Assembly (NCBI GenBank): GCA_964371595.1
Contig: CAYJNJ010000001.1
Location: forward strand, 46,408-110,407
DNA: 64,000 nucleotides
Origin: an uncultured Bacteroidales bacterium
GTDB lineage: Bacteria > Bacteroidota > Bacteroidia > Bacteroidales > JAGOPY01
Direction: 5' to 3'
Shown: piece after piece, positions 85-44,437 of the stretch
Layout of the letters: each line of letters starts with the position of its first letter
How positions within the stretch are numbered: position 1 is the first letter of the stretch
Program-made: the position numbers and the translations under genes
The notes under the pieces: model-generated
What the model saw: the letters and a program-made list of their open reading frames with translations, nothing else
What the model was told of the DNA's origin: nothing
Databases searched by the model: none

Positions 85-420
85 ATGTCATTGAGTAAAG
101 GAAAACATAATGTCGGCGAAGTGGACGGTGTCCGCTGTACGATTGTTGAAACCGGCATCAGCAAGGAAAGGGCAGATTTTCTCAAAGGACTGCTCCAGTT
201 CAACGGTTTTGAAGTCAGGATACAGGAAGAAGTGGCCGATCCGCCAGTTACCCCGAAAACATACACCCTTGGCGTTACAAACATCCTGTTTAACCCGGTA
301 ATAGCCGTTTATCAGAAGAGCCTTAAAACAAAAGAAGGCAGGAAAGTAACCCCGGCATACTGGAACCAGGCAGGAGATGAGGAAATGATACCGTACTGGC
401 TGGTCGGAAGGACAGATTAG
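85..420 (+). CDS. hypothetical protein (111 aa)
   Basis: It is the only long sense ORF in this interval, with an ATG start. The TAG stop at 418-420 abuts a heptamer array. I recognise no motif. Confidence 0.5.
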   Translation: MSLSKGKHNVGEVDGVRCTIVETGISKERADFLKGLLQFNGFEVRIQEEVADPPVTPKTYTLGVTNILFNPVIAVYQKSLKTKEGRKVTPAYWNQAGDEEMIPYWLVGRTD

Positions 421-468
421 CCACAAGCCACAAGCCGCAAGCCACAAGCCCTACGCCCTAAGCCGTCC
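420..468. repeat. 7-bp tandem array: GCCACAA GCCACAA GCCGCAA GCCACAA, decaying into GCCCTAC GCCCTAA GCCGTCC
   Basis: Read directly from the sequence. The array lies between two convergent genes and overlaps the last codons of the minus-strand flavoprotein gene. Confidence 0.85.
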
Positions 469-1677
469 AGTAATCCATCCCGTCGTCCAGGCTGCCTGGA
501 AATTAAATCCACCGGTGATAGCGTCGATATCCAGCACCTCTCCTGCAAAATAGAGATTTTTACAAACCCTGCTCTGCATCGTATTCATATCAATACTCTC
601 CAGGCTGACACCTCCGCAGGTCACGAATTCATCCTTAAACGTTGTCCTGCCGTTAACCGTGTAAATATCATTGCAAAGCACATTCACCAGCCTGTTTATC
701 CCTTTCTTCCCGATTTCTCCCCAGGCTTTATTCCCAGGTAGTTCGATTTTTTCAAGAAGAAATAACCAAAGCCTGGCAGGTAATGCAAATGGCCTGAAGT
801 TGCAAAGCAATTTATGCTGATGGTCACTTAAAATCTCATTTAATTGCCCTGAAACCAGTTCATTATTTATCTCATTCGCCCAGTTAACCTGGATTTTAAA
901 GTTGTAATTCATATCGCTCAAAATCCTGGCACCAAAGGAGGACAGTTTCAGGATTGCAGGTCCGCTCATGCCCCAATGGGTAATCAGTAAAGGGCCATCA
1001 GACTCGAGTTTGGTTCCCTGTATCTTTACCCTTGCATTCTCCACGGCGACTCCCATCAATCCTGTTACAGGGTCATCCGGCATATTGAATGAAAACAGCG
1101 AAGGCACCGGGTCCTCAATTTTATGCCCGAGCTTTTCCAGCCATGACAGGCCTGCTCTTTGTGGTGATCCGCCTGTAGTAACAATGATCTTATCGAATGT
1201 TTCAGGCCCAGGCATACCGTGGTTAAATCGGATTTCCAGCTTTTCATCCGCCGGCCTGATCGCTTTTACCTGCATACCGGTCTTTATCTCTATTCCAAGC
1301 CGGGAAGCTTCTGCAAGTAAGCAATCGATAATGCTCCGGGAATTGTTCGATGCGGGGAAGACGCGCAGGTCGTCCTGGACGATTAGCGGTACCCCCCGGG
1401 CTTCAAACCAGGCGATCGTATGCTTGTTATTGAAAACATGAAAGGCTTTTTTGAGGTTCCGGCCACCCCGTGGATAAGCGCTGCAGAGCTCAGAAATAGA
1501 ATTGCAACCGTTGGTAACGTTGCACCGCCCGCCACCGGATATTTTAACTTTAGCCAATACCTGGTCGGATTTTTCAAAGATCACAACCCTGGCAACTGGG
1601 TAATTCTCTTTTGCAGCAATGGCTGCAAAAAACCCGGCCGCTCCCCCACCGATGATTGCAATTTGCAAAGGAATCAC
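451..1677 (-). CDS. NAD(P)/FAD-dependent oxidoreductase, HI0933/BaiN-like flavoprotein
   Basis: The 408-aa product has an N-terminal dinucleotide-binding motif (IAIIGGGAAGFFAAIAA). Length and C-terminus (FAGEVLDIDAITGGFNFQAAWTTG) are typical of the HI0933 family. Confidence 0.85.
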   Translation of the reverse strand: MIPLQIAIIGGGAAGFFAAIAAKENYPVARVVIFEKSDQVLAKVKISGGGRCNVTNGCNSISELCSAYPRGGRNLKKAFHVFNNKHTIAWFEARGVPLIVQDDLRVFPASNNSRSIIDCLLAEASRLGIEIKTGMQVKAIRPADEKLEIRFNHGMPGPETFDKIIVTTGGSPQRAGLSWLEKLGHKIEDPVPSLFSFNMPDDPVTGLMGVAVENARVKIQGTKLESDGPLLITHWGMSGPAILKLSSFGARILSDMNYNFKIQVNWANEINNELVSGQLNEILSDHQHKLLCNFRPFALPARLWLFLLEKIELPGNKAWGEIGKKGINRLVNVLCNDIYTVNGRTTFKDEFVTCGGVSLESIDMNTMQSRVCKNLYFAGEVLDIDAITGGFNFQAAWTTGWITGRLRA

Positions 1678-2699
1678 TCAACAATAGTGCACCATCCGTG
1701 CGTATCCGGTTCCTCGCCATATTGAATGGCCCTGAGCTTATTGTAAAGTTTGGTGGACAACGGGCCGGCATTGCCGTCAGAGCAATAATTGTAAATAGTA
1801 CCGGTTTCCCTGTCGTGGATCTTTTTTATCGGGGAAATAATGGCTGCGGTACCGCAAGCGCCGACTTCATCAAATTCTGCCAGCTCTTCCACTGCCACTT
1901 TCCTTACTTCGACATTCATCCCCATTTCCTTTGCGAGGATCTGCAGGCATTTATTGGTGATGGAAGGAAGAATAGTATGAGATGCCGGCGTGATATAGGT
2001 ATTTCCTTTTATACCAAAAAAGTTTGCCGGGCCGGCCTCATCGATGTATTTCTTTTCTTTGGCATCGAGGAATAATACGGTCGAACAACCTTCCTCTTTT
2101 GCCCTGTTAGCCGGGAAAAGGCTGGCTGCGTAATTCCCGCCGACTTTAATATGGCCTGTGCCCAGCGGGGCAGCGCGGTCAAAGTCGCGCAGCAACTGCA
2201 CGCAAACAGGCTTGAAACCTTCTTTAAAGTAAGGTCCTACCGGGCCGACAAATACCATGAACATGTATTCTGTTGCCGGCTTCACCCCTACCTGCGGACC
2301 TGTCCCGATCAGCAAGGGCCTGAAATAGAGTGCTGCACCTGTTCCGTAAGGGGGAATATATTTTTCATTGAGCCTCAACGCGGTCATAATCGACTTTTCA
2401 AACAATTCGTCCGGAACCGGGGCCATCATCACTCCGTCGGCGGAGGTACGCATCCGCTTTGCATTGTCCTGCCAGCGGAATACCCTGATTTTCCCATCCT
2501 TGCCGCGGAAAGCCTTCATCCCTTCAAATGCCTCCTGGCCATAATGCAGGCAGGTCGCTGCAATATGAATACTAACATATTCTGAAGAAGAAATTTCAAT
2601 TTCTCCCCATTTTCCATCCCTGAAATAACACCTTACATTATAATCGGTCTTAAAGTACCCGAATGGCAGATTTCCCCAGTCAATTGTTTCCATGCTCAA
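1674..2699 (-). CDS. ilvE: branched-chain amino acid aminotransferase (class IV)
   Basis: The 341-aa product carries the FEGMKAFR and GGNYAASL motifs typical of IlvE. It overlaps the downstream gene by 4 nt. Confidence 0.9.
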   Translation of the reverse strand: MSMETIDWGNLPFGYFKTDYNVRCYFRDGKWGEIEISSSEYVSIHIAATCLHYGQEAFEGMKAFRGKDGKIRVFRWQDNAKRMRTSADGVMMAPVPDELFEKSIMTALRLNEKYIPPYGTGAALYFRPLLIGTGPQVGVKPATEYMFMVFVGPVGPYFKEGFKPVCVQLLRDFDRAAPLGTGHIKVGGNYAASLFPANRAKEEGCSTVLFLDAKEKKYIDEAGPANFFGIKGNTYITPASHTILPSITNKCLQILAKEMGMNVEVRKVAVEELAEFDEVGACGTAAIISPIKKIHDRETGTIYNYCSDGNAGPLSTKLYNKLRAIQYGEEPDTHGWCTIVE

Positions 2700-2928
2700 T
2701 ATATTTTTTAGTCAAAATCAGTTTGGTCATTTACGAGGCTAAATTAGGAATTTTTGGGGAAACCAAAGGATTCATGAAGCAAAATTCAATATTAATTAAA
2801 AGGCTACCTCCCTAATACCCGAACTGACGGATTTACCCGTCGGAAGCATTTTGTTGGCACGCCAAAATGTCAGCCCTGGTTTTCGGTATATACTTTGATC
2901 AATCATCCCGTCTAAAAAATTCCAAACT

Positions 2929-4833
2929 ATGCAAACCGGTAAGATAAACGTTCAAACGGAAAACATTTTTCCCATCATTAAAAAATTCCTTTATTCAGAT
3001 CATGAAATATTCCTCCGCGAACTGGTTTCCAATGCTGTAGATGCTACACAGAAACTGAAGACCCTTGCGTCCGTCGGCACTTTCAAAGATGAACTCGGGG
3101 ACCTGACCATTAAAGTGGTGCTCGATAAAAAAGCCGGGACTATCACAGTTAAAGACCGTGGTATAGGCATGTCGGCCGAGGAGGTGGATAAATATATTAA
3201 CCAGATCGCTTTTTCGAGCGCTGAAGAATTCGTCAAGAAATTTAAAACCAAGAGCGAAGCCGAGCGGAACGCCATTATCGGCCATTTCGGACTGGGATTT
3301 TATTCCTCATTCATGGTTTCGGATAAAGTCGAGATCTACACCAAAACCTATAAAAAAGGCGGGCAGTCGAAAGGAGTAAAATGGGAATGCGACGGCAGCC
3401 CTGATTATACCCTTTCAGAGACCGACAGGAAAGAACGCGGGACCGATATTATAGTTTATATCGACAAGGAAAACAAAGACTTCCTCGAGGAAAGCAAAAT
3501 CCTTGAAATCCTCAGGAAATATTCACGCTTCCTGCCGGTCCCCATAGAATTCGGAACAGAAAAAACCTGGGAGAAAGTTGAAGGTGAGAAGGATGAGCAC
3601 GGTCATGACAAGGAAGTATCTGTTGAAAAGCCGCGAATTATCAATAATACCGATCCGCTATGGAAGAAAAAGCCGACGGATTGCACGGATGAGGATTATA
3701 AAAATTTCTACCGTGAACTTTACCCGATGAATTTCGATGAACCCCTTTTCCAGATCCACCTGAATGTCGATTACCCTTTCAATCTTACCGGTATCCTTTA
3801 TTTTCCAAAGGTGAAAAGGAATGTCGAGATACAGAAAGACAAGATCCAGCTTTACTGCAACCAGGTATTTGTGACCGATTCCGTAGAAGGTATCGTACCC
3901 GAATTCCTTACTTTACTTCACGGGGTCATTGATTCACCGGATATTCCGCTGAATGTCTCCCGTTCATACCTGCAAAGCGATTCCAACGTGAAAAAGATCT
4001 CCGGCTATATCATGAAGAAAGTGTCGGAAAAGCTGGAAGACCTTTTCAAAAAAGACCGTCCCGGATTTGAAGCGAAGTGGGATGACATCAAAGTCTTTAT
4101 CGAATACGGTATGATCAGCGAAGAAAAATTTTATGAGAAGGCTGTGAAATTTACCCTGCTAAAGAATGTTGAAGGAAAATATTTCACCCTCGATGAATAT
4201 AAATCACATGTTGAAGCGACGAATAAAGACAAGAATAATAAGACCATCTACCTTTATGCTTCAAATAAAGATGAGCAGCACAGCTTTATCCAGGCTGCGA
4301 CTGAAAAGGGCTACGATGTCCTCATGATGGACGGGATCCTGGACAATCACTTCATCAACACCCTTGAGCATAAACTTACCGACGTAATGTTCCGCAGGGT
4401 AGATTCCGATACGATCGACAAACTCATCAATAAAGAGGAAAACACGGTCTCAAAACTGGATGAAACACAAAAGGAATCATTGAAGGGTATCATCGAAAGA
4501 AATATCGAAAAAGAAAAATTCACCGTTATATTTGAAAACCTGAGTGAGACGGAAGTTCCCTTCCTTGTTCTTCAGCCTGAATTCATGAGGAGGATGAAGG
4601 ATATGTCGGCGATGGGAGGCGGATACATGGGGATGGGTGCGATGCCGGAATTCTACAACCTGGTGGTGAATGCAAACCATCCGCTCATGCAGACCGTTCT
4701 GGAACAAGGTGAAGAAGCCGGCCAGGATAAACTGGTCCGCCAGTTATACGACCTGGCCCTGATATCCCAGAACCTTCTCAAAGGAGAGAAATTAACCGAC
4801 TTTGTAAAACGAAGCATTGAATTGATAAAGTAA
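2929..4833 (+). CDS. htpG: molecular chaperone HtpG (Hsp90 family)
   Basis: The 634-aa product has the GHKL ATPase N-terminus (FLRELVSNAVDA, GIGMS, GHFGLGFYS) and HtpG middle and C-terminal domains. Confidence 0.95.
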   Translation: MQTGKINVQTENIFPIIKKFLYSDHEIFLRELVSNAVDATQKLKTLASVGTFKDELGDLTIKVVLDKKAGTITVKDRGIGMSAEEVDKYINQIAFSSAEEFVKKFKTKSEAERNAIIGHFGLGFYSSFMVSDKVEIYTKTYKKGGQSKGVKWECDGSPDYTLSETDRKERGTDIIVYIDKENKDFLEESKILEILRKYSRFLPVPIEFGTEKTWEKVEGEKDEHGHDKEVSVEKPRIINNTDPLWKKKPTDCTDEDYKNFYRELYPMNFDEPLFQIHLNVDYPFNLTGILYFPKVKRNVEIQKDKIQLYCNQVFVTDSVEGIVPEFLTLLHGVIDSPDIPLNVSRSYLQSDSNVKKISGYIMKKVSEKLEDLFKKDRPGFEAKWDDIKVFIEYGMISEEKFYEKAVKFTLLKNVEGKYFTLDEYKSHVEATNKDKNNKTIYLYASNKDEQHSFIQAATEKGYDVLMMDGILDNHFINTLEHKLTDVMFRRVDSDTIDKLINKEENTVSKLDETQKESLKGIIERNIEKEKFTVIFENLSETEVPFLVLQPEFMRRMKDMSAMGGGYMGMGAMPEFYNLVVNANHPLMQTVLEQGEEAGQDKLVRQLYDLALISQNLLKGEKLTDFVKRSIELIK

Positions 4834-5967: not shown

Positions 5968-6774
5968 ATGAAACCACTCAAAAACCTCCTTTTTACCGTA
6001 TTCATCCTCGCCGGCATTTCGGCGATCGGACAGGAAATCCCCGAGCCGATGTCGCCTCCGCGGCTTGTCAATGATTTTGCCGGAATTCTGACGCCAAACC
6101 AGCGCCAGCACCTTGAGCGAAAGCTGGTCAGCTTTAATGACAGTACTTCGACGCAGATCATGGTCATTCTTGTCAAATCATTGAATGGCCTGACTCCAGA
6201 AGAATTTGCAGACAGGATTGGCGAAAAGTGGGGCGTTGGCACTAAAGGCAAAAATAACGGGGTAGTTGTGCTGGTAAAGCCCAAATATAGCAATGAGAAG
6301 GGAGAAGCGAGGATCTCGACCGGTTACGGTGTGGAAGGTGCTATCACGGATGCCCTCAGTAAACGGATCATCGAAGTTGAGATGAAGCCTTATTTTATAC
6401 AAGGTGATTATTTCACCGGCCTCGACAAGGCGACCAATACGCTGATGGAACTGACAAAAGGGGAATACACTGCCGACCAATATCTTAAAGGAACTAAAGG
6501 AAACAAATGGGGGATTTTCATCCCTCTCATTATCATCATCATTATTATTCTTTTCATGAGAAACAATTCCGGTAACCATTATACGACCGGCAGCAAAGGC
6601 ACCTCCTTATGGACCGCGCTATGGCTGGCCTCGATGATGGGTAGCCGCGGCGGAAGCGGCTCCTGGGGCGATTTCCGGTCCGGCGGCGGAAGCTTCGGAG
6701 GTGGTGGCGGAGGCGGTTTTGGCGGCTTCGGCGGCGGATCTTTTGGTGGCGGTGGGGCAGGCGGAAGCTGGTAG
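5968..6774 (+). CDS. TPM domain-containing membrane protein (YgcG-like) with a glycine-rich C-terminus
   Basis: The product has a signal peptide, a TPM domain (FAGILTP..Q...LE.KL..F...TSTQI.V), a TM helix and a GGGSFGGGGGGGFGGFGGG tail. LemA-TPM-TPM is a common trio. Confidence 0.8.
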   Translation: MKPLKNLLFTVFILAGISAIGQEIPEPMSPPRLVNDFAGILTPNQRQHLERKLVSFNDSTSTQIMVILVKSLNGLTPEEFADRIGEKWGVGTKGKNNGVVVLVKPKYSNEKGEARISTGYGVEGAITDALSKRIIEVEMKPYFIQGDYFTGLDKATNTLMELTKGEYTADQYLKGTKGNKWGIFIPLIIIIIIILFMRNNSGNHYTTGSKGTSLWTALWLASMMGSRGGSGSWGDFRSGGGSFGGGGGGGFGGFGGGSFGGGGAGGSW

Positions 6775-6780: not shown

Positions 6781-6811
6781 AGTGTTAAGTGTTGGGTGTT
6801 GAGTGTTAAGT
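6781..6811. repeat. 7-bp tandem array: AGTGTTA AGTGTTG GGTGTTG AGTGTTA AGT
   Basis: Read directly. It starts 7 nt after the TAG stop of the YgcG-like gene. Confidence 0.8.
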
Positions 6812-6837: not shown

Positions 6838-6873
6838 CTGACGGGTCTTTTAGATTCCGTCAGTTTTATTTTT
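6838..6873 (+). terminator. rho-independent terminator candidate
   Basis: The stem CTGACGG (6838-6844) pairs with CCGTCAG (6857-6863) around a 12-nt loop. It is followed by TTTTATTTTT. Confidence 0.6.
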
Positions 6874-7057: not shown

Positions 7058-8239
7058 ATGCATAGATATTTACGCCGGACCATGAGTAAAATTCTGCCCG
7101 GGTTACTGCTCATGGCCATGCTATTTACAGATGGCATCTTTGCGGAAAGGACATTTTCCCAGGCCCCTGACGGTGCCCAGCTTTTTCAACCCTGTTCAGC
7201 CTGCCATAAGATCGGAGGAGGAAAACTGATCGGCCCCGACCTTAAAGGGGTCACAGAGCGGCGCGACAGGGAATGGCTGATCCGTTTCATCAAAAATTCG
7301 CAGGAGATGGTCCAGGCCGGCGATCCTATCGCAGTCAAACTATTCGAGGAACATAACAAGATCCCGATGCCGCCGGCCAACCTGACCGATGAGCAAATCA
7401 ATACCGTCCTGGAATATATTGAAAAGTATGATCCCAACCAGGCTGCAGCAGCCACTACTACACCGGAAGTTGCTGCCGGCGAGGAAAAACCTGGTGTGCA
7501 GGGTTTCTTCGAGGATACAAAAGATCATAAGCGCCAGTACGGGACATCTTTCATTATCACCCTGATCCTTTTACTGGTTGCCTGCCTCGATCTGTTCGTC
7601 ACAAAACTGATCAAGGCACGTTTCGTTCACGTTATCGTGATCCTGATCTCGGTGTTCATCATTTCAGAAATTACTTACGTGGAAGCCAAGAACCTGGGCC
7701 GCCAGCCCGGTTACGCCCCCGACCAACCCATCCTTTTTTCACATAAGGTGCATGCCGGCGATAATAAAATCGATTGTAAATACTGCCATACTTCCGTTAT
7801 GCAAAGTAAGCATGCCGGAATACCGTCGGTAAATGTGTGTATGAACTGCCATAATGTGGTAAGGCAGGGAAGGAACAGCGGCACGGTTGAGATAGATAAG
7901 ATCTATAAAGCCATTGAAACCGGCAAACCTATCGAATGGGTCAAAGTGCATAACCTGCCTGACCATACCTATTTTAACCATGCCCAGCATGTGAATGCCG
8001 GCAAGGTGGCCTGCGAGTCATGCCACGGCGATGTTAAAACCATGGACCGCGTCATGCAGGTTCAGATGCTTAGCATGGGCTGGTGTATCGATTGTCACCG
8101 GAAGACTGAAGTTCAGTTTACGGAAAATGCCTATTACCAGAAATTTACAAGACTGCATGAAGAGCTCAAATCCGGGAAGCGCACCCGCATCAGTGTCGAA
8201 GATGTCGGCGGGACAGAATGCTCGAAATGCCATTATTAA
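7058..8239 (+). CDS. actA: alternative complex III subunit ActA: multihaem cytochrome c with an extra N-terminal class-I cytochrome c domain
   Basis: The product has six CXXCH motifs. CSACH lies in the N-terminal soluble domain; CKYCH, CMNCH, CESCH, CIDCH and CSKCH lie in the C-terminal pentahaem part. Two predicted TM helices lie between them. It is the first gene of the actABCDEF order. Confidence 0.85.
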   Translation: MHRYLRRTMSKILPGLLLMAMLFTDGIFAERTFSQAPDGAQLFQPCSACHKIGGGKLIGPDLKGVTERRDREWLIRFIKNSQEMVQAGDPIAVKLFEEHNKIPMPPANLTDEQINTVLEYIEKYDPNQAAAATTTPEVAAGEEKPGVQGFFEDTKDHKRQYGTSFIITLILLLVACLDLFVTKLIKARFVHVIVILISVFIISEITYVEAKNLGRQPGYAPDQPILFSHKVHAGDNKIDCKYCHTSVMQSKHAGIPSVNVCMNCHNVVRQGRNSGTVEIDKIYKAIETGKPIEWVKVHNLPDHTYFNHAQHVNAGKVACESCHGDVKTMDRVMQVQMLSMGWCIDCHRKTEVQFTENAYYQKFTRLHEELKSGKRTRISVEDVGGTECSKCHY

Positions 8240-8264
8240 TATTTTCCCTAAGAATCAGTAAACC

Positions 8265-11200
8265 ATGGATGATATAAAACAATACTGGAGAAGCCTGGAA
8301 GAACACAAAATCATGGCATCGCGGGAACCTGCCGGGAAAAAAGCCATTCCTCTCGGGCATTCTCACAGCGAAGAAATTTCGGCTGATGATAAATCTTTAA
8401 GCCCCAGCCGCAGGGATTTCCTGAAAATGCTCGGTTTTACGGTAGGTTATGCAGCGCTGGCCAACAGTTGCGAAATGCCTGTCAGGAAGGCAATCCCTTA
8501 CCTCAGCCAGCCTGAAGAGATCACACCCGGCATCGCCAATTATTATGCTTCGACATTCTTCGACGGCCACGATTACTGCAGCATCGTGGTCAAAACCAGA
8601 GAAGGAAGGCCGATCAAGATCGAGGGCAACACGCTCTCGAAACTGACCATGGGCGGAACAAATGCCCGGGTGCAGGCTTCTGTGCTTAGCCTTTACGACC
8701 AGGCCAGGCTGAAAGTACCTTTGAAAGAAGGACAGGTCATCAGTTGGCAAAGCATCGACCAGGAAATTACGGACAAACTGAAATCTTTCGGAAGCGGCAG
8801 GATAGTTATCCTGAGCCCCACTGTCATCAGTCCTTCTACCCGTAAAGCAATAGAGGAATTTAAAGTTACCTATCCTTCTGCAGAATGGGTGGTTTATGAC
8901 ACGATTTCTGCGGCTGCGCTCCTTGATGCCAATGAAGCCAATTTCGGGACCAGGTCCCTTCCTTCCTATCATTTTGATAAAGCCTCGCTGATCGTAGGTT
9001 TTAATGCCGATTTCCTGGGCAACTGGCTCATGCCGGTGAAATACGCCAGGGATTACGCCAAAGGAAGAAAACTGATGGGCGCCAATTCTATGTCGAGGCA
9101 CATCCAGTTTGAGTCTTACATGTCACTGACCGGTTCGAACGCCGATACCAGGGTGCCGATGAAACCTTCGGAAGAGCTCGGGATCTTGCTGAACCTTTTC
9201 AATGAGCTGGCCTCCGAAAAAGGCCTGTCAAGAGTTAATGCCCCTGCTTCCCCGGTTGACGTTAAACCGGTTGCAGCCGAATTAAGGGCGAACAAAGGCA
9301 AATCGCTGGTATTATCAGGCACCAACGACTTTTATATCCAGGCGACAGTAAACGCGATCAATCATATCCTCGACAGCTATGGCTCTACGATAGATTTAAA
9401 CGAACACACTAATCTCCGCCAGGGAAGCGACCGTGAAATGAGCCGCATTGTGGATGAAATGAATGCGGGAAATGTCAAAGCCATTCTGCTTTATGGAGTT
9501 AACCCGGCTTACGATTATGCTGAATCAGATAAATTTATAAGCGGACTCACCAAATGCGAATTAAGCGTATCATTTTCTGAAACTCACGATGAAACAGCAA
9601 AGCTCTGCAAGTATGTTTGTCCTGATAATCATTACCTGGAATCGTGGAATGATGCCGAGCCGGTGAAGAATTGCTATAGTCTTGCGCAGCCGGTCATTAA
9701 CAGGATCTTCGACACCAGGCAGGCCCAGGAAAGCCTGTTGAAATGGGCAGGAAAAGAAACCGCTTTCTATGATTACATCCGGGCTTACTGGGAAACTGAA
9801 CTTTTCCCGAAACAAAACGAATTTCTTACGTTTGAACCATTCTGGAATAAAAGCCTGCACGATGGAGTCGCCATCATTGTCGATTCTGCATTGTCGGTTG
9901 TCGATTTTCGTGAGGTTGATCTGGGGCAGGCGAAGGCGGAAAATCCTGCCGGCCTTGAGTTAGTGCTTTATGAAAAGATAGGACTTGGAACCGGAAAGCA
10001 TGCCAACAACCCGTGGCTGCAGGAATTACCGGATCCCATAACCAAGGCAGTGTGGGATAATTACGTATGTGTTGCGCCATCCTATGCTAAAGAGCATGGC
10101 CTGGCGAATGAAGATGTTGTCATAATAAACGGGACCATTGAATTACCGGTACTTGTCCAGCCCGGCCAGCATAAAGATACAATCGGAATAGCGGTAGGTT
10201 ACGGCCGCAGCAGCGCAGGCAAAGTGGCCGACGGGATCGGTGAAAACCTTTTCCCGCTGGCAAATACGGTGAACGGCTACCGCCGGCTTTCCGGAAAAGT
10301 GGTGACCATTGAAAAGACTGGCGGTAAGACCTATCCTCTTGCCACCACTCAGACGCATCACACCATGGAAGGGCGTGCCATCATCAGGGAAACCACTCTG
10401 GCACAATGGCTTAAGGATCCGAAGTCAGGCAATGAAATGCATGATGACATCATGAAGCAGAACGAAACATTGTATACCAAGCCTGAGTATGACAGCTACC
10501 ACTGGAGCATGGCCATAAACCTGAATTCCTGCATCGGATGCGGAAACTGCGCCATTGCCTGCCAGGCTGAGAACAATGTTGCCGTGATAGGCAAGCAGGA
10601 AGTCAAGAACCGGAGGATCATGCACTGGATCAGGATCGACAGGTATTATTCCCAGGAGGTCGACAATCCGGAGGTAACGCATATGCCGGTTATGTGCCAG
10701 CACTGCGATAATGCGCCCTGCGAGAATGTATGCCCGGTTGCTGCGACCCCGCACAGCTCGGAAGGATTGAACCAGATGGCATATAACCGCTGCATCGGGA
10801 CCAGGTATTGCATGAACAACTGCCCGTACCGGGTCAGGAGGTTCAACTGGTTTGAATATTCCAATGAAAAGAGGTTCAACTATAATATGGGCAACGAGCA
10901 GGAAAAGATGGTACTGAATCCCGATGTTACAGTTCGTACCCGAGGTGTTGTCGAGAAATGCTCGATGTGCGTCCAGCGAATCCAGGAGCAGAAGCTGATT
11001 GCCAAGACTGAGAACCGCACTGTCCGCGAAGGCGATATCAAGACGGCCTGCCAGCAATCGTGCCCCGGAGATGCTATCGTTTTCGGCGACATCAACGATC
11101 CCAACAGTGAAATCGCAAAAGTTGTGCAGGACCCAAGGAGCTACCAGTTACTGGAACAACTCCACACACTGCCTTCGGTAAGTTATGTTACCAAAGTGCG

Positions 11201-11306
11201 GAATATGGACCCGAAAGATAAATGGAAGAATTACTCAAGCCATTATCCGACCTATTCTTCTGGTGAATCTACAATGGAAGAGCACATGGAAGAAACACAT
11301 GAATAA
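8265..11306 (+). CDS. actB: alternative complex III subunit ActB (molybdopterin-oxidoreductase-like domain fused to a 4Fe-4S ferredoxin domain, Tat signal)
   Basis: The 1013-aa product has the twin-arginine motif SRRDFLKMLG. Its cysteine clusters are CIGCGNCAIAC, CQHCDNAPCENVCP and CIGTRYCMNNCPY. Confidence 0.9.
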   Translation: MDDIKQYWRSLEEHKIMASREPAGKKAIPLGHSHSEEISADDKSLSPSRRDFLKMLGFTVGYAALANSCEMPVRKAIPYLSQPEEITPGIANYYASTFFDGHDYCSIVVKTREGRPIKIEGNTLSKLTMGGTNARVQASVLSLYDQARLKVPLKEGQVISWQSIDQEITDKLKSFGSGRIVILSPTVISPSTRKAIEEFKVTYPSAEWVVYDTISAAALLDANEANFGTRSLPSYHFDKASLIVGFNADFLGNWLMPVKYARDYAKGRKLMGANSMSRHIQFESYMSLTGSNADTRVPMKPSEELGILLNLFNELASEKGLSRVNAPASPVDVKPVAAELRANKGKSLVLSGTNDFYIQATVNAINHILDSYGSTIDLNEHTNLRQGSDREMSRIVDEMNAGNVKAILLYGVNPAYDYAESDKFISGLTKCELSVSFSETHDETAKLCKYVCPDNHYLESWNDAEPVKNCYSLAQPVINRIFDTRQAQESLLKWAGKETAFYDYIRAYWETELFPKQNEFLTFEPFWNKSLHDGVAIIVDSALSVVDFREVDLGQAKAENPAGLELVLYEKIGLGTGKHANNPWLQELPDPITKAVWDNYVCVAPSYAKEHGLANEDVVIINGTIELPVLVQPGQHKDTIGIAVGYGRSSAGKVADGIGENLFPLANTVNGYRRLSGKVVTIEKTGGKTYPLATTQTHHTMEGRAIIRETTLAQWLKDPKSGNEMHDDIMKQNETLYTKPEYDSYHWSMAINLNSCIGCGNCAIACQAENNVAVIGKQEVKNRRIMHWIRIDRYYSQEVDNPEVTHMPVMCQHCDNAPCENVCPVAATPHSSEGLNQMAYNRCIGTRYCMNNCPYRVRRFNWFEYSNEKRFNYNMGNEQEKMVLNPDVTVRTRGVVEKCSMCVQRIQEQKLIAKTENRTVREGDIKTACQQSCPGDAIVFGDINDPNSEIAKVVQDPRSYQLLEQLHTLPSVSYVTKVRNMDPKDKWKNYSSHYPTYSSGESTMEEHMEETHE

Positions 11307-11337
11307 AAAATTGACCGGCTAATAAAAGTTTAGTAAT

Positions 11338-13273: not shown

Positions 13274-13286
13274 CATTTCGTTCATT

Positions 13287-13862: not shown

Positions 13863-13888
13863 TTATTTGACGGAAGGAGATAATCACT

Positions 13889-15232: not shown

Positions 15233-15259
15233 AAGAAGGATCTAAGGCGCTCACTTATT

Positions 15260-26348: not shown

Positions 26349-26354
26349 GCAATA

Positions 26355-29912: not shown

Positions 29913-29958
29913 GTTTAGTGCAGGGGGCAGGCAGAAGCAGAAAAGCACTGTGCTGAAT

Positions 29959-30119
29959 GCTGGCAGATCCCTCCTTCGTCGGGATGACGGCGCCGAGAGA
30001 AAAAATAAAGCGGCGTGGCATGCAGACAGTTTGCCAATAGTACTGTCCTTAGTTGCCGCGCCGCACTTTTCTTTCTCGTTTCCCGCGGTGTCATCCCGAC
30101 GAAGGAGGGAACTGCCGGC
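29959..30119. repeat. 161-bp imperfect palindrome (MITE-like or structured element) with a perfect 21-nt core in its terminal inverted repeats
   Basis: TCCCTCCTTCGTCGGGATGAC (29968-29988) pairs with GTCATCCCGACGAAGGAGGGA (30090-30110). The flanking GCTGGCAGA and ACTGCCGGC extend the arms. The interior is also partly self-complementary (GACAGT..ACTGTC at the centre). Confidence 0.8.
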
Positions 30120-30210
30120 ATCTTAATAAAAAAATTCTCAAAAATTTGCATCTTATTTAGAATAATTCTAAATTTGCCGCGTCTTCCTGTTCTAATTAAA
30201 ACCAAATCAA

Positions 30211-33239: not shown

Positions 33240-33240
33240 G

Positions 33241-33290
33241 AAGACAGAAGACAGAAGACAGAATAACAATAGAACAATAGAACAATAGAA
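33241..33290. repeat. tandem array: AAGACAG x3 (7 bp), then AATAACAAT AGAACAAT AGAACAAT AGAATT (8-9 bp)
   Basis: Read directly. It starts 2 nt after the coxIII stop and ends 5 nt before the coxIV ATG. Confidence 0.85.
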
Positions 33291-33619: not shown

Positions 33620-33643
33620 AGCAGTTTGAAAAATAATTAAGGT

Positions 33644-33780
33644 GGAATTTTAGAACAATGGAACAATGGAACTTTGGAACAATGGAACAATGGAACCCTG
33701 GAACAATGGAACTCTGGAACAATGGAACTTTGGAACAATGGAACTTTTAATCTGGAATTTGGAATCTGGAATTTGGAATT
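33644..33780. repeat. about 13 units of an 8-mer (GGAACAAT / GGAACTTT / GGAACCCT / GGAACTCT) followed by 7-mers (GGAATTT / GGAATCT)
   Basis: Read directly. It fills most of the 194-bp coxIV-coxII spacer. Confidence 0.9.
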
Positions 33781-33813
33781 AAAATAAATTAACCAACAAA
33801 TAAACATCAATCT

Positions 33814-34722
33814 ATGCCTGGTGCATCAAATTTTGTTGAAGGAGTAGACCTGACCTTTATTATTATCCTGGGTGCCTCTGTCTTTTTCCTGGTCGGGATT
33901 ACAGCGGTGATGATCTACTTTGCCATCCGTTACCGGAGGAAAAAGAATCCCAAAGCCTCCCAGATCGAAGGGAATAATACCCTGGAAGTAGTGTGGACGG
34001 TGATTCCGACCATACTGGTACTGATCATGTTTTATTTTGGATGGCTTGGATACAGCCCGATGCGGAAAGTCCCTTCAAACGCAATTCCTATAAAAGCCTA
34101 CGGCCAGATGTGGAGCTGGAGTTTCGAGTACCCGAACGGTAAAAAATCAACGGAGCTTTTCGTTCCGCTCAATTTGCCGGTAAAACTCGACCTTATTTCA
34201 CGCGATGTGATCCACAGCCTTTATATTCCTGCTTTTCGTATTAAGGAAGATGTGGTCCCCGGTAAAAACAATTATATGTGGTTCACTGCCCAGGTCGAAG
34301 GCGAATATGACCTGTTCTGCGCGGAGTATTGCGGCGACAGGCACAGCTATATGCTCAGCAAAGTGAAGGTTTTGCCGGAAGCAGAGTACAATTCATGGCT
34401 GGCCCAGTCTGATATTCCCGCCGGTGAGCACCCAGGACTGACCGTGATGAAGCAAAACGGCTGTATTGCCTGCCATTCCCTGGATGGAGTTAAGATCGTC
34501 GGCCCTTCTTTCAAAGGAATTTACGGGCATGAGGTTGATGTAGTGACCAATGGACAGGAACGTAAGGTTGTTGTTGATGATGAATACATTAAAAATTCCA
34601 TTTACGAGCCAAATGCCGATGTGGTGAAAGGCTTTAATCCGGGTTTGATGATTTCGTATAAGCAGACGATAAAGGAAGAGGATGTCGCGAAGATAATTGA
34701 TTATATCAGGGAACTGAAGTGA
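33814..34722 (+). CDS. ctaC: cytochrome c oxidase subunit II with a C-terminal cytochrome c domain (caa3 type)
   Basis: It has two TM helices, the CuA motif CAEYCGDRHSYM with upstream HS, and a C-terminal CIACHS haem c motif. Confidence 0.9.
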   Translation: MPGASNFVEGVDLTFIIILGASVFFLVGITAVMIYFAIRYRRKKNPKASQIEGNNTLEVVWTVIPTILVLIMFYFGWLGYSPMRKVPSNAIPIKAYGQMWSWSFEYPNGKKSTELFVPLNLPVKLDLISRDVIHSLYIPAFRIKEDVVPGKNNYMWFTAQVEGEYDLFCAEYCGDRHSYMLSKVKVLPEAEYNSWLAQSDIPAGEHPGLTVMKQNGCIACHSLDGVKIVGPSFKGIYGHEVDVVTNGQERKVVVDDEYIKNSIYEPNADVVKGFNPGLMISYKQTIKEEDVAKIIDYIRELK

Positions 34723-34788
34723 CAGTTGGACAGTTGGACAATTGGACAATTTAACAATTTAACAATTTAACAATTTAACAGTTTAACA
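34721..34788. repeat. 8-bp array filling the whole coxII-ctaB spacer: GACAGTTG x2, GACAATTG, GACAATTT, AACAATTT x3, AACAGTTT, AACA(ATG)
   Basis: The first unit overlaps the TGA stop (34720-22). The last unit supplies the ctaB ATG (34789). Confidence 0.9.
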
Positions 34789-35646
34789 ATGAAGATTCTC
34801 CTGATCTTCCTCGAACTTAGCAAAGTAAAGATAACCTTTGCCGTCGCCCTGACGACCATCACGGGGTATCTCCTGGCAGGAGGCTCTTTTGATGCGGGGC
34901 TGATCTTGCCGACTATCGGGATTTTCCTGCTGGCCTGCGGATCTTCGGCAATAAACCATTTCCAGGAACGTGACAAGGATGCACTCATGGAAAGGACAAA
35001 GAAAAGACCCATTCCTTCCGGAAGAATCTCTCCGATGGGTGCATTACTGTTTGCTTTCCTGCTGTCTGCCGCCGGGTCTGCTATCCTTTATTACAGTTCG
35101 GGAATGCTCGGGATGCAGTTGGGTATCCTGGCGCTGATATGGTACAACCTCATTTATACACCGTTAAAAAAGAAGACAGCCTTCGCCGTAGTGCCCGGAG
35201 CCGTCATCGGTTCGATACCGCCATTGGTCGGCTGGGTTTCTGCAGGTGGCCAGCTGTCCGATCCAAGGGCGCTATTCATGGCCTTTTTCTTCTTTATCTG
35301 GCAGGTGCCTCATTTCTGGCTGCTCATGCTGAAATATGGCGAAGAATATACCGCTGCCGGTTTCCCTTCCATCACAAGCGTTTATACCTCACGGCAAATC
35401 AAAAAGATAACCTTTATCTGGATACTGGCAACGGCAGTATCCGCCCTTATGCTGCCGGCATTTAATGTGGTTGAATCCTGGCTGGTGATTATCGGCCTGC
35501 TCCTTTCCTCCGCCTGGCTCGTCGGGCAGTTTACCAGGCTGCTTGCAGTCCGTGATATCGCCTTCAGCCCGATTAAATACTTCATGAAAATCAATTATTT
35601 CGTGCTGGCCGTGATTATTTTCCTTTCCCTCGACAGGTTTATCTGA
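34789..35646 (+). CDS. ctaB: protohaem IX farnesyltransferase (haem O synthase)
   Basis: It is a 285-aa polytopic protein of the UbiA prenyltransferase family, sited next to the cox genes. Confidence 0.85.
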   Translation: MKILLIFLELSKVKITFAVALTTITGYLLAGGSFDAGLILPTIGIFLLACGSSAINHFQERDKDALMERTKKRPIPSGRISPMGALLFAFLLSAAGSAILYYSSGMLGMQLGILALIWYNLIYTPLKKKTAFAVVPGAVIGSIPPLVGWVSAGGQLSDPRALFMAFFFFIWQVPHFWLLMLKYGEEYTAAGFPSITSVYTSRQIKKITFIWILATAVSALMLPAFNVVESWLVIIGLLLSSAWLVGQFTRLLAVRDIAFSPIKYFMKINYFVLAVIIFLSLDRFI

Positions 35647-35721: not shown

Positions 35722-35964
35722 ATGAAAAACTCAACTGTTTTTACTACCTCATTGCCAAATGATCTTGTTGGCACACTCAGTCAATATGCTGACAAATTCA
35801 AGGTGCCTAAAAATAAAATCCTGGAGGAGGCATTGCAGCTTTATTTCGATAAACTTAAGAAAGCCGAGTATACCCGTTCATTCAGGAAAGCAGCTCAGAA
35901 TGAAGAAATGCAAAGTCTTGCCGAAGAAGGGCTGGCCGATTACCTGAAAATTCTTGATGAATGA
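35722..35964 (+). CDS. ribbon-helix-helix (CopG-like) antitoxin
   Basis: 80 aa. It overlaps the downstream PemK/MazF gene by 4 nt, the typical arrangement of a type II toxin-antitoxin pair. Confidence 0.65.
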   Translation: MKNSTVFTTSLPNDLVGTLSQYADKFKVPKNKILEEALQLYFDKLKKAEYTRSFRKAAQNEEMQSLAEEGLADYLKILDE

Positions 35965-36293
35965 AGCAGCGTGATATTTGCCTTGCCGACCATAACCCGG
36001 TCCAGGGCAGTGAACAAAGCGGGATCAGGCCTGTCGTTATTATCAGCGGAAATGCTATGAATGATAATCTTAACATTTGCATCGTCTGCCCGCTTTCATC
36101 AAATATAAAAAATTATACAGGATGCCTCGTTTTACAAAAAGATGAAGTAAACCACCTCGACCAGGATTCAGAAGTACTTACATTTCAAATCCGTACCATT
36201 GCAAAATCAAGGCTTAATAAAAAGATCGGGACAATTTCAGAATCCCAATTAAATATTATCCTCAACGGTCTCAGGGATGTACTTACTTATTAG
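35961..36293 (+). CDS. mazF: type II toxin PemK/MazF family endoribonuclease
   Basis: 110 aa. The N-terminal pattern (DICLADHNPVQGSEQSGIRPVVIIS) matches the MazF/PemK fold signature. Confidence 0.8.
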   Translation: MKQRDICLADHNPVQGSEQSGIRPVVIISGNAMNDNLNICIVCPLSSNIKNYTGCLVLQKDEVNHLDQDSEVLTFQIRTIAKSRLNKKIGTISESQLNIILNGLRDVLTY

Positions 36294-38325: not shown

Positions 38326-39484
38326 TATGTTTGAAAACCTTTCATTCCTGGCTTTACAGCAATACTGGTGGATAATTATCTCCCTGCTGGCATCTTTACT
38401 GGTCTTTTTATTTTTCGTCCAGGGGGGCCAGACACTGATCTACAAATTAGGCCGGACCGAGCAGGAACGGACAATGATCGTGAATGCCCTAGGTCGTAAA
38501 TGGGAATTCACTTTCACCACCCTGGTCACTTTTGGAGGCGCCTTTTTTGCTTCTTTCCCTCTTTTTTATGCAACCAGTTTCGGTGGGGCTTACTGGGCCT
38601 GGATGCTGATCCTTTTCGCCTTCGTTGTACAGGCCGTTGCATACGAATACCGGTCAAAACCACATAACTTCCTCGGACAGAGAACATTTGAAATTTTCCT
38701 GTATGTGAACGGGGCCGTTGGTACCATACTGACCGGAATTGCAGTCGCCTCCTTTTTTACCGGTTCATCCTTCTATGTGAGCAATATGAACCTGCCTGAG
38801 TGGAAAAGCCCATTTAACGGACTGGAGCTGGCTTTCGACCTTGGCAGGTATGGTACTTTTATCAACCTCTCCCTCGGACTTGCCATCTTTTTTCTCTCCA
38901 GGGTCCTGGGAAATCTTTACCTGCTGAATTCTGTAGAACACAGCATCATCATCAAACGCGGCTATTACCAGCTTCTGAAAGATGCGGTACCTTTCCTGTT
39001 CTTCTTCCTGTTTTTCCTGGTCAACATCCTGCTGCGTAAGGGTTTTGCTTATTCACCGGATACAGGGCTTGTCAGTGAAGAGCCCTTCAAATACCTCCAT
39101 AACCTGCTACAGATGCCGGTAGTACTGGTTTGCCTGTTAGCCGGAGTCGGCCTTGTGCTTTACGGCCTGTTCAAAAGCTGGAAAACTTTCGATGCCTTCC
39201 ATTCCAAAGCAATCTGGTTTGTCGGGCCCGGAACCGTACTGGCCGTATTCGCCCTGTTCCTGCTTGCCGGTTTCAACCAGACTGCATTCTATCCTTCTGT
39301 CTATGACCCGCAAAGCTCATTGACCATCGAAAACGCATCCTCTTCAAAATACACCCTCACCGCCATGAGTTATGTTTCCCTGATGGTGCCCTTTGTATTT
39401 GCTTACATATGGTACGCCTGGCGGGCCCTTAATAAAAAGAAGATCAGTGCTGAAGAAATTGAAGGCGAAGGACACAAATACTGA
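38312..39484 (+). CDS. cydB: cytochrome bd ubiquinol oxidase subunit II
   Basis: It is a polytopic CydB-family protein. The start is either the ATG at 38312 (overlapping cydA) or the ATG at 38327, one nt after the cydA stop. Confidence 0.9.
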   Translation: MEDTDMFENLSFLALQQYWWIIISLLASLLVFLFFVQGGQTLIYKLGRTEQERTMIVNALGRKWEFTFTTLVTFGGAFFASFPLFYATSFGGAYWAWMLILFAFVVQAVAYEYRSKPHNFLGQRTFEIFLYVNGAVGTILTGIAVASFFTGSSFYVSNMNLPEWKSPFNGLELAFDLGRYGTFINLSLGLAIFFLSRVLGNLYLLNSVEHSIIIKRGYYQLLKDAVPFLFFFLFFLVNILLRKGFAYSPDTGLVSEEPFKYLHNLLQMPVVLVCLLAGVGLVLYGLFKSWKTFDAFHSKAIWFVGPGTVLAVFALFLLAGFNQTAFYPSVYDPQSSLTIENASSSKYTLTAMSYVSLMVPFVFAYIWYAWRALNKKKISAEEIEGEGHKY

Positions 39485-39625
39485 AACCAAAATACCAAAT
39501 ACCAAGCACCAAATACCAAACAACTTCCAAACTCCAAAACCCCAAAACCTCAAAACCCCAAAACCTCAAAACCTCAAAACCTCAAAACCTCAAAACCTCA
39601 AAACCCCAAAACCTCAAAACCTCAA
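39485..39625. repeat. C/A-rich, G-poor array related to 21268-21437: ACCAAAT / ACCAAGC words, then about 10 units of the 8-mer CAAAACCY
   Basis: Read directly. It begins at the first base after the cydB TGA. Confidence 0.9.
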
Positions 39626-39629
39626 TTCC

Positions 39630-39770
39630 ATGCATACAGCACAAATCCTCTGGCTAATCTCCCTTCCTGTACTGATTTTTATCACTTACAGGGTGGTACT
39701 TATCGTCATTAAAAAATACGAAAAGAAATTTCCTTCGGATGTTGAAAGAAATTCCGGGAATATTTCATGA
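39630..39770 (+). CDS. possible 46-aa single-TM protein downstream of cydAB
   Basis: The ATG lies just after the repeat. The product is MHTAQILWLISLPVLIFITYRVVLIVIKKYEKKF.., with one hydrophobic helix followed by basic residues. I recognise no homology. Confidence 0.3.
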   Translation: MHTAQILWLISLPVLIFITYRVVLIVIKKYEKKFPSDVERNSGNIS

Positions 39771-43491: not shown

Positions 43492-43527
43492 TTTTCACGC
43501 AAAGAATACCAAGATTTTATATAAGAG

Positions 43528-43565
43528 CGCAAAGATTGAAAAGGTCTTTGCGTTCTTTTTTATTT
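43528..43565 (+). terminator. rho-independent terminator
   Basis: The stem CGCAAAGA (43528-35) pairs with TCTTTGCG (43545-52) around a 9-nt loop. It is followed by TTCTTTTTTATTT. Confidence 0.7.
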
Positions 43566-43594
43566 ATTTGCGACCTTTGCGTGAACCTGTCGAA

Positions 43595-44296
43595 ATGAAT
43601 CTTTTTTATACGCCGGATATATCAAGCAATTTTTATTCCCTGAACGAGGAAGAATCCCGTCATTGTCAGAAAGTTTTACGCTTACATGAAGGCGATGTGA
43701 TCCAGCTGACCGATGGCCGGGGAACGCTATACCAGGCGCAGATCGTTGACTCACGAGGCAGGCAGGTAGCTGTGGAAGTTATTTCCAGCCTGGAAAAATA
43801 CGGCAAACGGAATTACCGTCTTCACCTGGCCGTTGCCCCTACCAAGAATATCGACCGCTTCGAGTGGTTCCTGGAAAAGGCGACCGAGATTGGTGTCGAT
43901 GAGATCACCCCGCTGATCTGCGAGCATTCCGAGCGCCGGCAGTTACGTCTAGACAGGCTTGAGAAGATCATCACCTCTGCGGTCAAGCAATCGCTGAAGG
44001 CATATCATCCTGTATTGCACCCGATGGCTCATTACAAAATTTTCATTGCGCAAAAGCGTGAAGGACAGCTATTCATCGCCCATCTGGAAGAAAGCAACCC
44101 CGTTTTACTTCAGAAACTGTATCTGAAAGGATCCGGTGCAACCATAATGATCGGCCCGGAAGGCGATTTCAGCGATATAGAGATCGCTGCTGCAATAAAA
44201 GCATCCTATCAATGCGTCTCATTGGGCAACAGCAGGCTCAGGACGGAAACTGCGGCGGTAGTAGCATGCCATGCGGTGTCTATGGTTAATGCTTAA
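43595..44296 (+). CDS. rsmE: 16S rRNA (uracil1498-N3)-methyltransferase
   Basis: About 233 aa. It has the RsmE N-terminus (MNLFYTPDI...EE.RH...VLRL..GD) and the C-terminal SPOUT motif (IGPEGDFS..E). Confidence 0.85.
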   Translation: MNLFYTPDISSNFYSLNEEESRHCQKVLRLHEGDVIQLTDGRGTLYQAQIVDSRGRQVAVEVISSLEKYGKRNYRLHLAVAPTKNIDRFEWFLEKATEIGVDEITPLICEHSERRQLRLDRLEKIITSAVKQSLKAYHPVLHPMAHYKIFIAQKREGQLFIAHLEESNPVLLQKLYLKGSGATIMIGPEGDFSDIEIAAAIKASYQCVSLGNSRLRTETAAVVACHAVSMVNA

Positions 44297-44437
44297 TGTT
44301 TAATTATCAATGCTTAATTATTAGTACTTTAATTCATAATTAGATAATTATTCTTACAGTCTTACCGTCCTACAGTCTTACCGTCCTACAGTCCTGCAGT
44401 CCTAGCGACGCTTTGCGACTTCTTTGCGAAACTTTGC
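44286..44437. repeat. composite word arrays: TTAAT-rich words, then the 8-mers CTTACAGT / CTTACCGT / CCTACAGT (7 units), then three CTTTGCG-containing words
   Basis: Read directly. The composite starts at the rsmE stop codon. Confidence 0.8.

Follow-up and report, generated by a model that had tools for sequence, protein, structure and literature searches.

Intergenic heptamer arrays of the kind named STRR have reportedly been known since 1990, and to our knowledge neither a function nor a mechanism of dispersal has been established for these or for the long simple-sequence repeats (LSSR). The present analysis concerns arrays of this kind in a 64,000-nt stretch of DNA (hereafter, the window) from an uncultured Bacteroidales bacterium (GenBank assembly GCA_964371595.1, contig CAYJNJ010000001.1, positions 46,408 to 110,407), in which units of 7 or 8 nt are repeated head to tail in the spacers between genes. 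They are LSSR of the heptamer/octamer class, akin to STRR, TAACTGA and GGGAATC arrays, and they have the look of rapidly changing products of the copying of DNA, not of a regulatory device that the operons need. An earlier note on this DNA had held that no described class of element matches them; this has to be withdrawn, since intergenic heptamer arrays form a documented class (PMC4679880, PMC4692102, PMC2670836).

LSSR, as the survey by Mrazek (2007) is related in PMC4679880 and PMC4692102, are built from units of 5-11 nt, the heptamer being the commonest and units that are multiples of three lying most often within genes; slippage was proposed as their origin. Like them, the window arrays run head to tail far beyond chance length, are sporadic and lineage-specific in their abundance, and confine units that are not multiples of three to non-coding DNA; they differ in that octamers are as common as heptamers, in that ~14% of the intergenic bases are array, and in their host, an uncultured environmental Bacteroidales outside the surveyed genomes so far as these two papers describe them. 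The STRR (short tandemly repeated repetitive sequences) of heterocystous cyanobacteria have units of ~7 bp and are found even in the hupS-hupL junction; a part in translational coupling or in the stability of transcripts has been suggested for them (PMC2670836). Shared with STRR are the dispersal of one word over many loci and an intergenic position that includes the inside of operons. In unit length the agreement is partial, half of the strong window arrays having 7-nt and half 8-nt units. The differences are that the host belongs to another phylum (Bacteroidota, not a heterocystous cyanobacterium), that there are many more word families per genome, and that the arrays are mostly not hairpins.

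Two further classes are closely comparable. In Beggiatoaceae, Cyanobacteria and five Bacteroidetes, repeats of TAACTGA are found a short way upstream of start codons (MacGregor, 2015; PMC4679880); the spacers also hold "other heptamer direct repeats," and close relatives have shorter, repeat-free spacers (PMC4679880). The window arrays resemble these in being intergenic, often within a few nucleotides of a start, in genomes with few ribosome-binding sites, in being present in Bacteroidetes and in having close relatives with shorter, array-free spacers; here, however, there is no dominant word, and arrays are anchored at the upstream stop as often as at the start. Arrays of GGGAATC in Xanthomonas and of GGGGA(C/T)T in Nostoc are ~90% intergenic, lie nearest to the end of the neighboring open reading frame (ORF) and on either strand (Rehm, 2015; PMC4692102), mostly between co-directional genes with one inside an operon (pecE-pecF), and vary extensively in length and sequence between close relatives (PMC4692102). 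Those arrays are G-rich and quadruplex-forming, whereas the window arrays are mostly A/T-rich or G-poor and have no G-runs. Neither GGGAATC nor GGGGAYT (PMC4692102) is tandemly repeated in the window. TAACTGA occurs there as five singletons only, with no doublet on either strand. Nor are there tandem repeats in the window of CAACAGT or TTGGTCA, which we take to be the STRR words. The words are thus new ones in a known kind of element.

The earlier note had listed arrays at twelve positions, and at every one of them Tandem Repeats Finder (TRF) returned an array of period 7 or 8 that can also be read directly in the sequence; TRF scores in the window reached 173, and four further arrays were found past 44.4 kb (45772, 46506, 49589, and 51533). 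An independent detector covering periods 4-12 with a strict score identified 12 strong arrays, split evenly between periods 7 and 8 (six each) with no other period represented, which bears out the claim that the unit is always 7 or 8 nt. All 12 lie in non-coding DNA, which makes up 11.4% of the window, and 100 dinucleotide-preserving shuffles yielded a mean of 0.03 arrays and a maximum of one. Arrays account for 904 of the 6577 intergenic bases (13.7%), and seven spacers consist of 71-100% array. At 80 Bacteroidota cox loci (1.33 Mb), intergenic arrays had periods of 7 (14 arrays), 8 (eight), 9 (two), and 10 (one), and arrays in coding sequences mostly had periods of 9 or 12. The density at these loci was about ten-fold lower than in the window, which marks the lineage of the window as array-prone. 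A third set of loci (L084-L203) came from an exact search for three copies of AACAATTT in public metagenomes and comprises at least 120 stretches totaling 777 kb; among the matches listed, arrays other than the query numbered ~112 of period 7 or 8 vs. 21 of period 6 or 9 (p = 3e-16), period 7 (77) exceeding period 8 (~35) and both far exceeding periods 6 and 9. The bias toward 7 and 8 nt holds even where the reading frame imposes no constraint.

Assembly artefacts are ruled out, as the same arrays are present in independent assemblies of other samples (L081, L082, L204, and L205). CRISPR arrays, repetitive extragenic palindromes and small transposable elements with inverted repeats (MITEs) were also rejected: the units are contiguous, head to tail and without spacers, the arrays are not palindromic, and Rfam gave no match, either for the whole window at the gathering threshold or for 44250-45800 at E<=1. 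The stepwise drift described for several arrays was recovered, for example at 34721-34790, where GACAGTTG passes into AACAATTT, and so was the recurrence of a small vocabulary: GGAATTT and AACAAT-type words were each seen three times, and CAAAACCY twice.

The genes of the window are those of the Bacteroidota respiratory machinery and include a cbb3 oxidase cluster (CcoI, CcoS, a CcoN-CcoO fusion, CcoP, CcoG, FixH, and DsbD_2) and a caa3-type cox cluster (CoxI, III, IV, II, and CyoE). The window is 99.98% identical to a stretch of a 212-kb sediment-metagenome contig (L081; ERZ13693045 NODE_312). By CoxI, in a search against one genome per species, its nearest relatives are metagenome-assembled genomes (MAGs) of uncultured Bacteroidales; amino-acid identities are 95% for L001 (CAVPBC01), 88% for L002 and 89% for L003, all others being at or below 80%. 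From CcoS to a type IX secretion system (T9SS) protein, synteny is perfect across the window and these three genomes, and the same junctions can be compared in all four. Between CoxIV and CoxII (CoxIV>CoxII) the spacer of the window is 194 nt long and holds arrays; L001 has 10 nt there, L002 has 16 nt, and L003 has 124 nt with nine copies of GAAACCA. At CcoP>CcoG the window has a GC-rich hairpin, L001 has AATTAAA and AAATCGSC arrays, L002 has more than 20 copies of TCATAGCA with an assembly gap, and L003 has 13 nt, such that this junction appears to be a repeatedly invaded site. CydB and the small ORF that follows it are separated by AAATACC and CAAAACCY arrays in the window, by AAATTCC in L001, by AATTCAA in L002, and by 5 nt in L003. 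The CoxIII>CoxIV junction has TAAGACTG and AACAATAG in L001, two units only in L002, and none in L003, and at FixH>DsbD_2 L001 has a homologous TGGAATY array, L002 has an 11-nt spacer, and in L003 the genes overlap. CoxII>CyoE carries an array of CAGT-core heptamers followed by AACAATTT in the window, L001 and L002, and a 10-nt spacer in L003. The ATTGGACG array at 29881 was not found in L001-L003. This comparison indicates that arrays arise, disappear and give way to others over the time in which species diverge, and that the operons work without them; the junctions of 5-13 nt in L003 show them to be dispensable. The hairpin at the CcoP>CcoG junction of the window (24403-24465) pairs CCCCTCCCTTC with GAAGGGAGGGG within a longer stem. 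In L002 the TCATAGCA array at the same junction is interrupted by a scaffold gap written as N (3424-3531); as arrays break short-read assemblies, array lengths in MAGs are unreliable.

The arrays are placed close to stop codons, as had been claimed: they overlap the upstream stop at 419, 33239, 34721, and 44282, follow it without a gap at 29881, and are separated from it by 5-6 nt at 39490 and 6781 (Table 1). The filling of spacers from stop to start is likewise seen at CoxIII>CoxIV, CoxII>CyoE, CcoS>CcoNO and the junction between CydB and a 46-aa ORF. The description of the host spacers as lying between co-directional genes is wrong for the array at 420, which fills the 30-nt gap between the convergent stops of 85-420 (+) and 451-1677 (-). 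It also needs correcting in that the arrays at 6781, 29881, and 44282 occupy the 3' regions of spacers that hold a promoter motif as well, and that at 15258 is probably part of a 5' leader. TAnnTTTG, the -7 motif of promoters in Bacteroidota, was used here since a scan of the cox junctions for sigma-70-type promoters and terminators, which is ill-suited to Bacteroidota, found nothing beyond chance. Nineteen of the 31 occurrences of TAnnTTTG in the window are intergenic; spacers between operons contain it, and there it is conserved in L001-L003. None of the seven array-dominated spacers contains it, from which these are probably junctions within the cco, cox, and cyd operons. Gene callers place TTG starts (15258 and 26392) and a 38-aa ORF (33669-33785) inside arrays.

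Table 1. Repeat arrays of the window and their surroundings, with one operon for reference; x, number of copies.
Feature	Position	Strand	Placement
AGCCACA x4.6, then AAGCCCT x2.7	419-464	not assigned	overlaps stop of 85-420 (+)
AGTGTTA x4.4	6781-6811	+	6 nt past stop of TPM-domain gene (5968-6774)
Alternative complex III (ACIII) operon	7058-15064		
GGAATTT x4.1	15258-15286	+	13 nt upstream of ResB/CcsA-fusion start (15300); TAnnTTTG upstream at 15179
CACCAAR x4.6, CAAAACCY x14, CCACTAA-type words	21267-21446	+	between CcoS domain and CcoNO start (21452)
AGCATTT/AACATTT words, then GGAATTT x4.9	26353-26409	+	between FixH stop (26348) and DsbD_2 start (26425)
ATTGGACG x4	29881-29912	+	first base after acyl-CoA synthetase stop (29878-29880)
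AGAAGAC x3.6, then AACAATAG x3.2	33239-33290	+	fills CoxIII stop (33237-33239) to CoxIV start (33296)
GGAACAAT-type octamers x11.5, then GGAATYT x4.6	33643-33780	+	CoxIV>CoxII spacer, 194 nt
GACAGTTG drifting via GACAATTG and GACAATTT to AACAATTT	34721-34790	+	exactly CoxII stop (34720-34722) to CyoE start (34789)
AAATACC x4.4, then CAAAACCY x11.4	39485-39625 (TRF 39490-39625)	+	CydB stop (39482-39484) to start of 46-aa ORF (39630)
ATGCTTA-type heptamers x5.3	44282-44321	+	overlaps RsmE stop (44294-44296)
TACAGTCY octamers x6.2	44352-44404	+	spacer shared with 44282 array; upstream of TAnnTTTG at 44498
AAAAATG-type heptamers x4.3	46506-46540	+	abuts start of ORF 46536-47639
TGAAAAA-type heptamers x4.6	49589-49620	+	long spacer

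The words of the arrays are dispersed well beyond the window. In the source metagenomes, contig depth on the window was 3-8 over unique sequence and 100-1000 or more in array bins, which reached 15-170 times the unique depth; 66-149 contigs matched per run in X1-X3, and 541 in X4, a run holding a related groundwater strain (~95% identical). The matching contigs had many different flanks and individual depths similar to that of the genome. The depth of the array bins together with the varied flanks indicates that the same words are present at many other loci, and these dispersed copies probably reside in this same genome. Just upstream of the window, the nuoM>nuoN junction consists of TAA followed by four copies of GTGGTGAA, 2.8 of TGGAACAC, and four of TGGAATT, and ends in GGAATTAAA like the arrays of the CoxIV>CoxII spacer and the ResB leader; GGAATTT is thereby present at three loci in the window and at nuoM>nuoN. 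The composites of ACCAARY and CAAAACCY at 21267-21446 and 39478-39635, 18 kb apart, align at 82% over ~155 nt. At the metagenome loci, among the matches listed, 123 of 127 AACAATTT arrays lie outside ORFs, and the same loci carry 159 further arrays of other words, at a density of 2.0 per 10 kb; periods of 7 and 8 predominate among them.

On balance, these observations are best explained by slippage at the level of DNA with a bias for 7-8 nt and by copying among spacers, selection having confined the surviving arrays to unconstrained transcribed DNA. Replication slippage would preferentially duplicate or delete units of 7-8 nt, such that short seeds would grow to arrays and be kept homogeneous, and mutated units, amplified in turn, would account for the gradual change of word from one end of an array to the other. 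The copying of entire arrays or of segments into other spacers, likely by gene conversion among similar arrays or by ectopic template switching, would generate the genome-wide families of words. Selection would then purge arrays that disrupt a reading frame, promoter or terminator or that introduce strong RNA structure, and the survivors would gather in intra-operon junctions, in the first bases past stops and in 5' leaders. The stop-to-start geometry would follow from ancestral junctions of no more than 5-20 nt, nearly all of the present spacer being array. The consequence would be 30-190 nt of largely unstructured RNA between cistrons, of a length that varies between strains, which could modulate translational coupling and would not be required for expression. 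We infer, along with slippage and copying, that the arrays are transcribed and close to neutral. A search for RNA-seq runs that contain the cox region listed none.

Several findings weigh against this explanation. The first is a composite order (a stop, CAGT-core heptamers such as GCAGTCR and GCAGTTG, the transition words AACAATAG and GACAATTT, an array of AACAATTT, a few bases, and ATG) that recurs at unrelated loci with different flanking genes (L087, L108, L146, L157, L160, L162, L188, and L190) and is seen too at CoxII>CyoE of three species (the window, L001, and L002); such recurrence is not what slippage by itself would predict. The AACAATTT array of CoxII>CyoE is kept, moreover, across three species with a CoxI identity of no more than 88-95%. 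Of the arrays, 34% begin 10 nt or less from the upstream stop, vs. 21% expected under uniform placement, and a modest strand bias is seen: in 105 of 160 arrays the coding strand has more A than T (p = 1e-4), the A/(A+T) of non-array spacer being 0.509. Most are depleted of G or C and nearly structure-free as RNA, as would be expected of a selected linker too. In favor of the explanation, and of an avoidance of constrained DNA, are the lack of TAnnTTTG in the seven array-dominated spacers and the number of arrays per kb of spacer, which is 1.0 between co-directional, 0.66 between convergent and 0.40 between divergent genes. This density, the stop proximity and the bias of A over T amount to a modest filter at the level of RNA or transcription.

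A second regularity is seen in pairs of inverted arrays, in which (AAATTGYT)n, a loop of 12-20 nt and (AACAATTT)n follow one another (e.g., L090, L091, L097, L130, and L168). Among the matches listed, an inverted (AAATTGYT)n accompanies 34 of the AACAATTT arrays, on the 5' side in 33 and on the 3' side in one. In another recurrent context, a core of the form CGCAAGCGAAAC...TGCATGCA is flanked by inverted arrays (L168, L089, L154, and L183). Composite order and the polarity of the inverted pairs suggest either that modules are copied as wholes or that a bipartite element is under selection. The arrays might accordingly be modular, polar intercistronic elements, with a GC-containing block of CAGT-core heptamers at the stop and an AT-rich block of AACAATTT-type octamers at the start. 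They would have spread by some form of copying through the operon junctions of a Bacteroidales clade and been kept for their effect on the hand-over of ribosomes between cistrons, in a phylum without Shine-Dalgarno pairing; we regard this as rather unlikely.

The low structure of the arrays bears on the linker hypothesis, which the earlier note had put forward as unstructured intercistronic RNA for re-initiation: arrays would be selected as A-rich, unstructured landing or scanning tracts for ribosomes and would set the subunit stoichiometry of the respiratory complexes. Bacteroidia do not use Shine-Dalgarno pairing, and their initiation is instead tuned by mRNA structure and upstream adenines (PMC6847099, PMC13000457), with which the A-rich bias of the coding strand agrees. 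Calculated minimum free energies were -0.7 kcal for 21267-21446 (180 nt, vs. -46 for genic controls) and 0.0 for 39490-39625 (136 nt), genic controls for arrays of this length ranging from -33 to -46; the value for 33239-33290 was 0.0. This weak folding is an effect of composition, however, as shuffled arrays fold equally weakly. Starts next to arrays are no more open than others (mean ensemble energy -7.2 vs. -6.7 kcal/mol, p = 0.32), the array-free orthologues of L003 being similar, and the proposal that arrays open the region of translation start was consequently rejected. Further in favor of a linker are the lack of ATG in arrays that directly abut a start codon, the absence of a promoter motif from the seven array-dominated spacers, a gradient from GC to AT between stop and start that was judged by eye in ~8 of 11 composite spacers, and the recurrence of the composite pattern at unrelated loci. 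Against it, L003 runs the same operons with junctions of 5-13 nt, some arrays follow a terminal gene, separate convergent genes or are oriented antisense, and the array at 33643-33780 holds seven upstream ATGs. What survives of the earlier proposal is the near-absence of structure; dispensability and the accessibility test have weakened the remainder, and we consider selected linkers an unlikely explanation of the arrays.

The proposal of platforms for an oligomeric or multi-domain protein that binds single-stranded RNA (cold-shock, S1-like or TRAP/HutP-like), one word per subunit, fits part of the data only. A cold-shock domain has a footprint of roughly a heptamer (PMC4679880), to which the period of 7-8 nt corresponds, the same words are met at many loci, and the arrays are predicted to be single-stranded as RNA. 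At least 17 distinct words are present in the 64 kb, though, and most of the "other" words of the 777 kb occur there only one to three times among the matches listed; orthologous spacers hold unrelated words or none at all. Orientation argues in the same sense. In co-directional spacers AACAATTT is sense in 42 and antisense in 24 cases among the matches listed. Reverse complements are both found on coding strands: GGAATTT in the window and AAATTCC in L001, or CAGTCTTA in the 44352 array of the window and TAAGACTG in L001. Occurrence in both orientations makes the identity of a word a property of DNA and speaks against a sequence-specific RNA-binding protein. With periods of 7-8 and heterogeneous words, the window has no TRAP/HutP-type site (no run of five or more (G/T)AG-N2-3, and no TRAP-like run of spaced (G/U)AG), and no candidate binding protein is found among the genes it encodes. 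Such platforms are disfavored and, in our estimation, highly improbable.

Differences in unit number between strains, which the earlier note had proposed to look for, were found, all of them in contigs. The strain of X4 has 16 nt (two units) more at CoxII>CyoE and 8 and 20 nt less at CoxIV>CoxII, and L083 lacks 56 nt (seven units) of the CoxIV>CoxII array, in a contig of 1.6x coverage that may reflect assembly collapse. Together with the extensive length differences between species and a repeat purity of 80-100%, which suggests recent turnover, they would suit tunable or contingency spacers, in which units gained and lost at a high rate alter cistron spacing or the length of untranslated regions (UTRs) and create heritable expression variants under selection. 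Contingency repeats have units of 1-5(-7) nt and lie in reading frames or between the promoter elements of surface and virulence genes in host-adapted bacteria. The window arrays would share with them slippage-driven change in unit number between strains; they differ in lying in operon junctions and UTRs of housekeeping respiratory genes. Known phase-variable repeats act in promoter spacers and reading frames, and the window arrays are situated outside these; their neighbors are core genes of respiration, the organism comes from an environmental source (sediment or groundwater), and the 419-464 array has an equal copy number, and so an equal length, in the window and two other samples (L204 and L205). 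Contingency switching fits only a part of the data and seems to us very unlikely.

Loading sites for Rho (rut-like), which would impose polarity when translation upstream fails, had been suggested for C-rich, G-poor arrays, and only such arrays are eligible, rut sites being C-rich, G-poor and unstructured RNA of ~70 nt or more. The fit extends to three: 21267-21446 and 39490-39625 (38% C, 1-2% G, 136-180 nt, unstructured) and, in part, 419-464 (46% C). It does not extend to the other nine, most arrays being G-containing and C-poor (GGAATTT, AGTGTTA, ATTGGACG, and AGAAGAC); the orthologous spacers of relatives lack C-rich arrays, and 419-464 is situated between convergent genes. We hold this role to be extremely improbable.

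Individual arrays and their neighborhoods provided further observations. A hairpin with a run of T (CTGACGG..CCGTCAG TTTTATTTTT, ~6838-6873) was read from the sequence downstream of the 6781-6811 array, its 12-nt loop being beyond the limits of a separate scan, and places this array probably within a 3' UTR; that at 15258-15286 is probably in a 5' leader. As the 21267-21446 array is almost free of stop codons on the + strand, the CcoS ORF (21114-21428) runs through to 21428, and the array may be partly coding. Read through it, CcoS would acquire a low-complexity tail rich in proline, lysine and glutamine (PKPQN-type), the length and frame of which would vary with the number of units. A perfect 16-nt palindrome (TCCGCCATATGGCGGA, 26410-26425) overlaps the DsbD_2 start codon and makes it the most structured start in the window (-20.3 kcal/mol vs. 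approximately -6 to -7 in relatives). After the acyl-CoA synthetase gene lies an inverted repeat (29957-29993 and 30085-30121; 37-nt arms, 89% complementary, 91 nt apart) that is missing from L001-L003 and resembles a MITE-like insertion. The 46-aa ORF (39630-39770, MHTAQILWLISLPVLIFITYRVVLIVIKKYEKKFP...) encodes a single-helix membrane protein, directly follows cydB in all four genomes and has no NCBIfam match; it may be a small cytochrome bd subunit.

The window further contains the ResB/CcsA fusion, cytochrome bd, T9SS-tailed proteins and two ribbon-helix-helix (RHH)/PemK pairs, and a scan for tRNA and tmRNA genes found none. One RHH antitoxin/PemK toxin pair (35725-36293) is inserted between cyoE and the DUF4492-cydAB operon and is missing from the syntenic L001-L003. 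Just downstream of the other (44526-45090), a 51-bp unit is repeated 3.7 times with 91% matches (45149-45338); each unit has two small hairpins, the RNA fold z-score is -3.67, Rfam gave no match for the repeat, and neither of its strands has an obvious gene. A segment of low GC content (~45700-53000; 33-38% vs. 44-52% elsewhere), with T9SS-tailed and unannotated small proteins and the A-rich heptamer arrays at 46506, 49589, and 51533, may be a horizontally acquired island.

With the same junctions array-free, array-filled or filled with other words, the four syntenic genomes offer a clean natural experiment, to which unit variation at the level of strains is added, and the Shine-Dalgarno-independent translation of the phylum makes the sequence of a junction especially relevant. 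In practical terms, such arrays break short-read assemblies and mislead gene callers. Were they modular elements, a function would be assigned to the STRR/LSSR class, which has long been unexplained, and a functional composite pattern would amount to a new layer of operon control; if neutral, the arrays would be the marker of an unusual mutational regime.

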